DNA of 10,142 bases from a virus (Duplodnaviria; Heunggongvirae; Uroviricota; Caudoviricetes), in IMG/VR virus record IMGVR_UViG_2671180673_000014; one strand, written 5' to 3'. Position numbers and translations under genes: made by a program. Positions 4,774 through 10,142 of the stretch are shown here, piece after piece; the stretch's first letter is position 1, and each line of letters starts with the position of its first letter. The notes under the pieces are model-generated. The model ran no database searches. It was not told the DNA's origin and saw only the letters and a list, made by a program, of their open reading frames with translations.

Positions 4774-4826
4774 GGGCGGCAGAGCAGTCACGGAGTAAAA
4801 CTGATACCGCCAAACGTCACCAGAAA
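4774..4826 (-). ncRNA. dicF: DicF small regulatory RNA (53 nt), antisense regulator of ftsZ and other mRNAs
   Basis: The reverse complement of 4774-4826 is TTTCTGGTGACGTTTGGCGGTATCAGTTTTACTCCGTGACTGCTCTGCCGCCC, followed by TTTTTAAAG. This matches the K-12 DicF sequence as I recall it, including the GGCGG...CCGCC 3' hairpin and U-tract. It lies between ydfC and dicB as in the K-12 dicB operon. Confidence 0.85.
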
Positions 4827-8039: not shown

Positions 8040-8079
8040 GTGTTGATTTCAGGTCATGAGGTAATTTTAAGGGGGACTT

Positions 8080-8502
8080 GTGGCAAAAGTTTTTACACAA
8101 GAAGAGCGGGAAAAAATTAAATGGCAGGTGGTGGAACTCGTGCGCCAGAGCGGCCGTGAGACGTTACGGCAACTGGAAGCTAAAACAGGTGCGACTAGAT
8201 ATCTGATGAGCGTTCTTGCCAGAGAGCTGGTAGCCAGTGGCGATGTATACAACTCCGGCTACGGGTTATTCCCCTCTGAACAGGCGCGTAAGGACTGGCA
8301 AAACGCCCGCAAAAAACTCTCGAGGGCAAAGGTGAAGAAACCTGCTGTGGTTGATCCGGACCTTATCTGGTCATCACCTGACGGAGAAATACGTCGCTAC
8401 GACAGTCGCCTAAACATAATCTGTCGCGAGTGCCGGAAGAGCGAAGTTATGCAGCGCATACTGGCTTTCTATCAGGGTAATTTTCAGGACGTGGCGCAGT
8501 GA
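8080..8502 (+). CDS. Hypothetical protein (140 aa, GTG start) with a possible helix-turn-helix segment
   Basis: GTG at 8080 is preceded by AAGGGGG. The segment RETLRQLEAKTGATRYLMSVLARELV looks HTH-like. Its TGA stop (8500-8502) overlaps the GTG start of the next gene (8499-8501). Confidence 0.55.
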   Translation: MAKVFTQEEREKIKWQVVELVRQSGRETLRQLEAKTGATRYLMSVLARELVASGDVYNSGYGLFPSEQARKDWQNARKKLSRAKVKKPAVVDPDLIWSSPDGEIRRYDSRLNIICRECRKSEVMQRILAFYQGNFQDVAQ

Positions 8503-8945
8503 GTGCACCGGCAACCATTCTTGATATGTGCTGTGGCAGCCGCATGTTCTGGTTCGATAAGTCTGACGAACGGGCGATATTCAGCGATATCAGAAAAGAA
8601 GGATACACATTACGCAATGGGAGACGCTTGATTATCAGCCCTGACATTATCGCAGATTTTCGTGCATTATCATTTGCAGACGCATCTTTTTCGATGGTTG
8701 TATTAGACCCTCCGCATCTTGAGAGTGTTGGTGATAACGCCTGGATGGGAAAGAAATATGGACGGCTGAATAAAGATGCCTGGCGTGATGATTCGCGACA
8801 GAGATTTAAAGAAGCCTTTCGGGTGTTGAGGCCGCACGGCGTTCTGATTTTTTAATGGAATGAAACGCAAATACCGGTAAGCCAGATTCTGGCACTGACA
8901 GACAGAAAACCTGTTATCTGTCAACGAACAGGGAAAAAACGATAA
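8499..8945 (+). pseudogene. Small SAM-dependent (DNA) methyltransferase interrupted by an in-frame TAA at 8853-8855; the frame continues for 29 codons to TAA at 8943-8945
   Basis: The translation carries motif I-like ILDMCCGSR and motif IV-like VVLDPPHL. After the ochre codon the same frame reads WNETQIPVSQILALTDRKPVICQRTGKKR. TTT-TAA-TGG is one substitution from TTT-AAA-TGG. Confidence 0.5.
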
Positions 8946-9117
8946 AACCCACTGGATTATTTTTATGAAAGAGGCATCCAGTGAGTAGATTCGTAAGGCT
9001 ACAGATACGTATATCTGAATAATTAAATTCAGTTCTGTAAATAAAATTTAATCCTTAACCGGATGGATTTCCGCACCCTCAGAACATCAGGAGGCCGCCC
9101 GAAAGGGCGGTAGTGAA

Positions 9118-9228
9118 ATGCGAAAGTTCAAAATTATTATTGAAACGGGAATAGCTGGTGGAGATTTTGAGGATGTATTCGAAGTGGACGATGACGCAAC
9201 ACCTGAGGAAATTCATGACGGAGCATAA
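9118..9228 (+). other. Short acidic ORF (36 aa, MRKFKIIIETGIAGGDFEDVFEVDDDATPEEIHDGA) behind an SD-hairpin-ATG arrangement
   Basis: AGGAGG at 9089-9094 is followed by the perfect hairpin CCGCCC-GAAA-GGGCGG (9095-9110), then ATG at 9118. Looping out the hairpin would bring the SD to about 7 nt from the start. The ORF is too short for a confident coding call. Confidence 0.25.
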
Positions 9229-9277
9229 GAAATTTTCTTTAACTACTGCAATTACTCATACCACGAAATAAAAGACG

Positions 9278-9469
9278 ATGAGGAAGAACAAAGTGGCTGA
9301 TTTTTGTTCAGCTAAATATAACATCAGTTTTGAAGAGCGGGATGAACTATTAATGGACTATGGTGAGTTACGCGGTGGAAGTGCTGCTGATGTCGAATCC
9401 TAGCGTGATGACTATGAAGCGGGAAAAACTCCGGTCGAAGCATATTGTGATGAGTGGGGCGATGAATGA
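9278..9469 (+). pseudogene. Small acidic ORF interrupted by an in-frame amber codon (TAG at 9401-9403); 63 codons if read through
   Basis: MRKNKVADFCSAKYNISFEERDELLMDYGELRGGSAADVES-(TAG)-RDDYEAGKTPVEAYCDEWGDE. The terminal TGA (9467-9469) overlaps the ATG of the next ORF (9466-9468) as ATGA, typical phage gene packing. Confidence 0.3.
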
Positions 9470-9753
9470 GCGAGATTAATTATCAGGAAGGGCATGAAAC
9501 GGCGGGGCAAGCAAAACCAGTGGCATGGCGATATCGCTACGTGAAAAAAGGCGTTACGGACTTTCAGGGGAAGTAGTGGTCTGGTGACTGGAAATATGTA
9601 CCGAAAAAAGAGGATTGTAACGACAGGCCGAACTATCAAATTCAGGCCTTATTCACTGCCTCACCAGTCCCAGTTACATCAGAAGAACTGGTTAAAGCTG
9701 TGCACTTTTATGAACAACTAAAACGCGAAAATCCACCAACATCCGGCAACTAG
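9466..9753 (+). pseudogene. Phage-like ORF interrupted by an in-frame amber codon (TAG at 9574-9576); 95 codons if read through
   Basis: MSEINYQEGHETAGQAKPVAWRYRYVKKGVTDFQGK-(TAG)-WSGDWKYVPKKEDCNDRPNYQIQALFTASPVPVTSEELVKAVHFYEQLKRENPPTSGN. The post-amber portion stays open for 58 codons in the same frame. Confidence 0.35.
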
Positions 9754-9892
9754 ATTAATGGATTAACTATGTCGGTTAAACGACCAGCCAACTGAAAAAG
9801 CGGAAACCTGATTACAGGTTGCCAGATAAGGCAATGAGCTACCTGGCGCGGAACGGACTGATAAGTATGGGGAATGTTTTACGATGAACCTT

Positions 9893-10142
9893 TAGACTGG
9901 ATTTGCCCCTATATTTCCAGACATCTGTTATCACTTAACCCATTACAAGCCCGCTGCCGCAGATATTCCCGTGGCGAGCGATAACCCAGCGCACTATGCG
10001 GATGCCATTCGTTATAATGCTCGAACGCCTCTGCAAGGTTCTTTGCTGCCGTTAACCCGTCTGGTTTGGGCATGATACTGATGTAGTCACGCTTTATCGT
10101 TTTCACGAAGCTCTCTGCTATTCCGTTACTCTCCGGACTCCG
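9893..10142 (-). mobile_element. Right end of an IS2 (IS3-family) insertion sequence, continuing beyond the window
   Basis: The terminal sequence tagactggatttgcccctatatttccagacatctgttatcacttaaccc matches the IS2 right inverted repeat as I recall it; the exact boundary is uncertain between 9893 and 9898. The adjacent minus-strand frame encodes the InsD C-terminus. Confidence 0.8.
9909..10142 (-). CDS. insD: IS2 transposase OrfB (InsD), C-terminal part only; the N-terminus lies outside the window
   Basis: The minus-strand frame, open to the window edge, reads [77 protein letters not shown]. This is the end of the IS3-family integrase-core (rve) domain, with the HSALGY box. Stop TAG at 9909-9911. 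Confidence 0.8.

Follow-up and report, generated by a model that had tools for sequence, protein, structure and literature searches.

The question raised by this locus is why neighboring genes of a prophage should each be interrupted by one in-frame stop codon. The initial annotation of the window, the whole 10,142-nt stretch of DNA analyzed here, counted three such genes. There are four, since the DUF7167 gene between the first and the second, with a TAA at 9226-9228, had been overlooked. The block lies downstream of the replication genes and encodes a phage DNA methyltransferase, a DUF7167 protein, and two proteins of unknown function. The nonsense changes, one per gene, are AAA>TAA, AAA>TAA, TGG>TAG, and CAG>TAG in this order, and two of the genes carry indels as well. 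The reading we favor, with a probability of roughly 0.87, is ordinary neutral decay of four small early genes in a Qin-type cryptic prophage, in which the lesions are old and fixed.

Identity and surroundings of the element

Judged by its gene content (int, exo, dicB, DicF, dicA, dicC, and replication genes), the window belongs to a lambdoid prophage of E. coli of the Qin type, of which it covers the early side. The DicF RNA, located between ydfC and dicB as expected of Qin, was the only hit in an Rfam scan of the whole window. The dicA/dicC immunity pair, together with dicB, ydfD, and ydfA-C, was named by PGAP on the DNA of E. coli FDAARGOS_1249 and likewise marks the element as Qin-type. The chromosome of this strain (L001) is 100% identical to the window over 8040-9800 and 99.8% identical over its whole length. 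The 8040-9800 stretch is found at 99% identity or more in approximately 500 records, and 338 complete genomes match at least 80% of the 10.1-kb window at 99.9%.

The gene order annotated by PGAP in FDAARGOS_1249 begins with the integrase, excisionase, exonuclease, ydfD, dicB, ydfC, ydfB, ydfA, dicA, and dicC. These are followed by a YdaT-family protein, a 321-aa replication-type protein, DUF977, and a "class I SAM-dependent methyltransferase", and then by a DUF7167 pseudogene ("internal stop") and a hypothetical pseudogene ("frameshifted; internal stop"). Further downstream are IS remnants, ydfW, flxA, relBE, hok, rem, ydfU, ydfT, and cspF/B. In FDAARGOS_1249, dicB and ydfC are also separated by an additional IS3-family element that the window lacks.

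In ECOR13, the element is identical over 8499-9898 and has been deposited as a 48.7-kb "complete phage genome" (PhiR42_1, L008). This record, of which the first 30.9 kb were scanned, carries a full set of lambda-like head genes. Because this copy is a 48.7-kb "phage" with a full head-gene set, the Qin-type element as a whole may not be fully defective. A literature search on the ECOR13 prophage PhiR42_1 returned nothing relevant.

The features of the window that bear on the decayed block are listed in the table. The gene string is linked by stop/start overlaps (GTGA, A/GTGGCTGA, and ATGA). The TGA of the DUF977 gene overlaps the GTG start of the methyltransferase gene in the GTGA at 8499-8502, and the ATGA lies at 9466-9469, so that the preserved overlaps described in the initial annotation are indeed present. 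Just 5' of the DUF7167 start, a hairpin with a 6-bp GC stem and a GAAA loop (CCGCCC-GAAA-GGGCGG, 9095-9110) is present at every orthologous locus, although some copies have single changes that are not compensated. As no T-run follows the hairpin, it is no typical terminator. At the 3' end, the full-length window matches H42 and H44 have "IS3-like element IS2 family transposase" as their annotation. Other strains run into an ISEsa1 remnant at this position.

Table. Coordinates of the decayed block, its flanking features, and DicF in the window
Feature	Coordinates	Strand	Remarks
DicF RNA (RF00039)	4774-4825	-	Full-length Rfam match, 76.7 bits against a gathering score of 48
DUF977 gene	8080-8502	+	Intact; Pfam DUF977, E=5e-29; called intact by PGAP on near-identical DNA
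Phage DNA methyltransferase pseudogene	8499-8988	+	Repaired product matches phrog_954; Lys to stop and a +1 G
DUF7167 pseudogene	9118-9300	+	In-frame TAA at 9226-9228; ancestral AAA, Lys
58-codon gene, phrog_519 family	9293-9469	+	TAG at 9401-9403; ancestral TGG, Trp; CCTGG>CCTAG
Last pseudogene, phrog_660 family	9466-9887	+	TAG at 9574-9576 and two deletions; ancestral stop TGA at 9885-9887
IS2 end	9899-10142	-	Directly 3' of the decayed block; window departs from the FDAARGOS_1249 chromosome exactly at 9899

Homology across the stops

Re-translation of 8040-9900 placed the three stops of the initial annotation where it had put them, at 8853-8855 (TAA), 9401-9403 (TAG), and 9574-9576 (TAG), and returned the same open stretches of 29 codons in the methyltransferase gene and 58 codons in the ORF at 9466. 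Comparison with orthologous prophage genes had been suggested there as a check. The orthologues compared here come from other prophages and phages and are 74-93% identical. Sense codons occupy all four sites in these orthologues (Lys, Lys, Trp, and Gln or Met), and the residues beyond the stops are conserved. Because of these sense codons, and because homology runs past every stop, the four stops are read as nonsense substitutions and not as native gene ends. By chance alone, open frames as long as those that follow the stops (29, 23, 21, and 58 codons) would arise together with a probability of about 0.002; the decisive evidence is the homology across the stops rather than these lengths.

The methyltransferase frame opens with GTG at 8499, meets the TAA at 8853-8855, and then stays open to a TAA at 8943-8945. 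Alignment of orthologues gives AAA (Lys) as the ancestral codon. This lysine is found in the copies of O157:H7, an Stx2c phage, a Klebsiella phage, and Salmonella phage Oslo, within ...LIFKWNETQ... or ...LIFKWNETQIPV.... Further along, GGG at 8931-8933 stands against GG in the orthologues, and this +1 G puts the last ~15 codons out of frame; ancestrally, the protein ended in ...GKNDKTHWIIFMKEASSE, followed by TAG at 8986-8988. The stop-repaired product of 162 aa matches phrog_954, "DNA methyltransferase", over residues 4-161 (E=6e-80), past the stop. The truncated product of 118 aa (WP_001310834.1) is called intact by PGAP in some genomes and a pseudogene in others, and the gene is flagged as a pseudogene in the 99.1%-identical variant described below. 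Members of this methyltransferase family are broken elsewhere too. The copy in an O157:H7 prophage (L003, 1503-1976) has an internal stop, a CCTGG>CCTAG amber, and that of Salmonella phage Oslo (L012, 286-800) appears to be frameshifted. The copy of the Klebsiella phage is intact.

In the DUF7167 frame, the TAA is followed by 23 open codons up to a TGA at 9298-9300, and the orthologues carry AAA (Lys) at 9226. The repaired product is recognized by Pfam DUF7167 (E=1e-13) and by phrog_1997 over residues 1-57 of 57, spanning the stop. PGAP assigns an "internal stop" to this gene on the near-identical DNA of FDAARGOS_1249.

The 58-codon gene was assigned a start at 9278 in the initial annotation. 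An ATG is present there, from which the frame runs to the TAG at 9401-9403 and then through 21 open codons to a TGA at 9467-9469. However, this ATG arose through a GAA>GAT change specific to the window; the start used by the orthologues corresponds to 9293, where ATG has become GTG in the window. Four of the five orthologues (L002, L006, L007, and L009) read ...AEAWRDDYEAGK... with TGG (Trp) at the site of the stop, and the repaired product matches phrog_519 (E=3e-13) across it. The gene has no PGAP annotation at all. In the 9398-9403 segment (TCC TGG > TCC TAG), the mutated G pairs with the inner C of CCWGG, which makes this a Dcm site. In phage vB_EcoM-606R7 (L010, 1579-1587), whose local haplotype differs, this Trp codon is likewise TAG. 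Since the allele had an exact match in 0 of 5,426 E. coli genomes, it represents either an independent event private to this phage or an error. The idea of a conserved TAG at this codon was rejected on the same ground.

The last pseudogene begins with the ATG at 9466, is interrupted by the TAG at 9574-9576, and stays open until a TAG at 9751-9753. The interrupted codon is CAG (Gln) in the orthologues and ATG (Met) in one. Compared with a 171-aa orthologue, the gene lacks ~92 nt at the 9740/9741 junction and a further 4 nt at 9784/9785. The repaired product matches phrog_660 across the stop, and PGAP calls the gene "frameshifted; internal stop" on the near-identical DNA of FDAARGOS_1249 (10427-10848). 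The initial annotation had stated that there are no frameshifts. This holds within the coordinates that it quoted; the two deletions and the +1 G of the methyltransferase gene lie just outside them.

Fixation and age of the lesions

A 782-nt query covering all four stops was searched against 5,426 complete E. coli genomes, with matches required over at least 80% of the query length. The four-stop block was found in 389 genomes at 98.6% identity or more, and the next class of matches lies at ~92%. These carriers come from many hosts, countries, laboratories, and sequencing platforms, and include NCTC strains, ATCC 8739, and O55:H7. The whole block is therefore reproduced in 389 independent assemblies.

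Window 61-mers with each stop repaired to the orthologous sense codon were searched in the same genomes. At none of the four sites was the sense allele found on the 61-nt haplotype of the window among the 5,426 genomes, and the best full-length hits were one base off. For 8853, no full-length exact match was obtained in this collection, and the best full-length match had one mismatch. For 9226, there was again no full-length exact match. The repaired 9401 allele was present in 0 of 506 matched genomes, all of 95-99% identity. The repaired 9574 61-mer matched ~1,150 genomes with one to three mismatches and none exactly over its full length. The search for an immediate ancestor, from which the order of the mutations could be read, thus gave none in this genome collection.

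A variant in strain ZYS9073 (L004), which is 99.1% identical, has all four stops. In this variant, G>A at 9403 turns the TAG into TAA, and there is an extra 1-nt deletion at 9550. Such additional changes are what a drifting pseudogene would be expected to show. The 9574 TAG and the deletion at 9740 are also common to L002 and L009, which are prophage or phage lineages otherwise ~92% identical to the window. In both of them the last pseudogene (9466-9900) is nearly identical, and the neighboring 9118-9465 segment differs by ~9%. Near identity amid diverged neighbors implies mosaicism, in which an already dead allele of the last gene would have been spread by recombination.

These comparisons show that the lesions are old and that this prophage lineage is fixed for them, with hundreds of strains having inherited them. 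The proposal of nonsense pseudogenization in a cryptic prophage, made in the initial annotation, is borne out by the orthologous sense codons and by homology through the stops. The word "recent" that accompanied it does not stand, because all four stops occur in a variant diverged by 0.9% and in 389 genomes from many hosts and countries, and the 9574 TAG and the adjacent deletion occur in other prophage lineages.

Probable neutral drift, its alternatives, and known systems

Window-specific changes were set with the help of orthologues, which gave ~81 nucleotide differences over the four genes. A random substitution creates a stop in 3.7-6.2% of cases, depending on the gene. Approximately 3.8 nonsense changes are thus expected among 81 under neutrality, and four were observed (P(>=4)=0.53). 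With relaxed constraint for only half of the differences, the probability becomes 0.125. An excess of nonsense mutations was rejected on this basis, and the run of nonsense lesions is not as uncommon as had been supposed. In the window lineage, the DUF7167 gene and the 58-codon gene together show 15 changes that are nonsynonymous or nonsense and 4 that are synonymous, close to the neutral ratio of ~4.4:1. The N:S ratios of the methyltransferase gene (~1.2:1) and the last gene (~1.1:1) are below the neutral ratio, with poor polarization for both; the methyltransferase differences are unpolarized and include divergence from the functional period. Exactly one nonsense change in each of four adjacent genes has a probability of 5.6% under random placement. 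This pattern is mildly uneven and not compelling, especially as the lesions of the last gene were inherited as a separate mosaic segment.

Neutral decay of this kind may be explained as follows. Lytic-cycle accessory genes are repressed in the lysogen and dispensable to a decaying prophage, and would be free to drift. In a string of overlapping genes, a first hit would abolish translational coupling and, through Rho-dependent polarity, silence the genes behind it. The lesions may cluster because of this polarity. At the 58-codon gene, TGG>TAG within a CCTGG Dcm site is what deamination of 5-methylcytosine would be expected to leave behind. Both AAA>TAA changes are transversions, with no evident hot spot around them, and CAG>TAG occurred in the context AAGCAGTGG.

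The alternative that fares best, though we consider it unlikely, is that the knock-outs were positively selected. An orphan methyltransferase and small early proteins would harm the lysogen if leakily expressed, and the genes would have been inactivated independently. The 5.6% probability of one stop per gene is in favor of this, as are the independent inactivations of the methyltransferase family in O157:H7 (amber) and Salmonella phage Oslo (frameshift) and the TAG of vB_EcoM-606R7 at the same Trp codon on a different haplotype. However, the total nonsense count equals the neutral expectation, and N:S is about neutral in two of the genes. The lesions of the last gene came as a shared mosaic segment and do not represent an independent hit. 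The TAG of vB_EcoM-606R7 is private, and the Trp codon offers one of the few transition routes to a stop in the 58-codon gene. A general rule, by which orphan methyltransferases and their coupled neighbors in lambdoid prophages are recurrently and selectively knocked out in lysogens owing to costly leaky expression, is similarly doubtful. If true, it would explain the one-stop-per-gene pattern and the inactivations in O157:H7 and Oslo.

Far less probable is readthrough of the stops, either by a suppressor tRNA of the host or prophage or by programmed readthrough, with full-length proteins still being made. The frames do stay open for 21-58 codons past each stop, but two stop types are involved (TAA twice and TAG twice), and the local genes end in TAA, TAG, and TGA alike. 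ARAGORN found no tRNA in the window, in a 19.8-kb stretch of the FDAARGOS_1249 chromosome, or in the first 30.9 kb of the ECOR13 record. The stops are not conserved, since diverged orthologues carry sense codons and the sole TAG at a shared site, in vB_EcoM-606R7, is private. Furthermore, two of the genes are additionally frameshifted or deleted, in the ZYS9073 variant the TAG has drifted to TAA beside a new 1-nt deletion, and the substitutions of the lineage look neutral. A suppressor background, which the initial annotation had offered as an alternative, is effectively excluded by the lack of a tRNA in the scanned stretches and by the indel-broken frames.

The same holds for its other alternative, errors of sequencing or consensus in a draft assembly; beyond the a priori possibility, nothing speaks for this negligible option, and the stops are identical in FDAARGOS_1249, and different laboratories have recovered them independently of one another in hundreds of complete genomes (98.6% identity or more). 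Equally implausible is that the stops are native gene ends followed by chance open frames: PGAP does take the 118-aa methyltransferase as a normal protein in some genomes, but the orthologues read Lys, Lys, Trp, and Gln at these sites and go on with residues that are conserved, and PHROG profiles align across every stop.

Neutral decay in a cryptic prophage is thus the reading we retain, and its biological weight is small, as this is textbook gene decay in a domesticated lambdoid prophage. RefSeq annotation already flags three of the four genes as pseudogenes. Three practical points follow from the analysis. WP_001310834.1, which is present in hundreds of RefSeq genomes, is the product of a truncated pseudogene, the 58-codon gene has been left unannotated, and the four fixed lesions are handy lineage markers for this Qin variant.

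Several known systems can be compared with the block. Deamination of 5-methylcytosine at Dcm sites (CCWGG) is reportedly the classic amber hot spot in the lacI work of Coulondre and Miller. The window stop at 9401-9403 and the O157 methyltransferase amber (L003, ~1780-1790) are both CCTGG>CCTAG, whereas the other three window stops lie outside Dcm sites. Compared with the small class I SAM-dependent DNA methyltransferases of phages (phrog_954), the repaired window product aligns over 158 residues and keeps the LDMCCGS and DPPH motifs. Unlike them, the protein as encoded in the window is cut at residue 118 of ~162 and its tail is frameshifted. As with other prophage pseudogenes annotated by PGAP, the DUF7167 gene and the last gene are flagged, and so is the methyltransferase gene in ZYS9073. 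The block departs from such calls in that the 58-codon gene is left without annotation and the truncated methyltransferase is often called "intact".

The closest system is Qin (Kim) of E. coli K-12, with which the window shares DicF, dicA, dicC, dicB, and ydfA-D. Genomes with the window DNA also have relBE, flxA, hokD, rem, ydfU, ydfT, and cspB/F downstream. In K-12 Qin, the stretch between dicC and ydfW has presumably been lost. The window variant differs from K-12 Qin in keeping the integrase, exonuclease, YdaT-like, O-like, and DUF977 genes as well as the decayed four-gene block, and the ECOR13 copy of the element differs further in its 48.7-kb length with lambda-like head genes.
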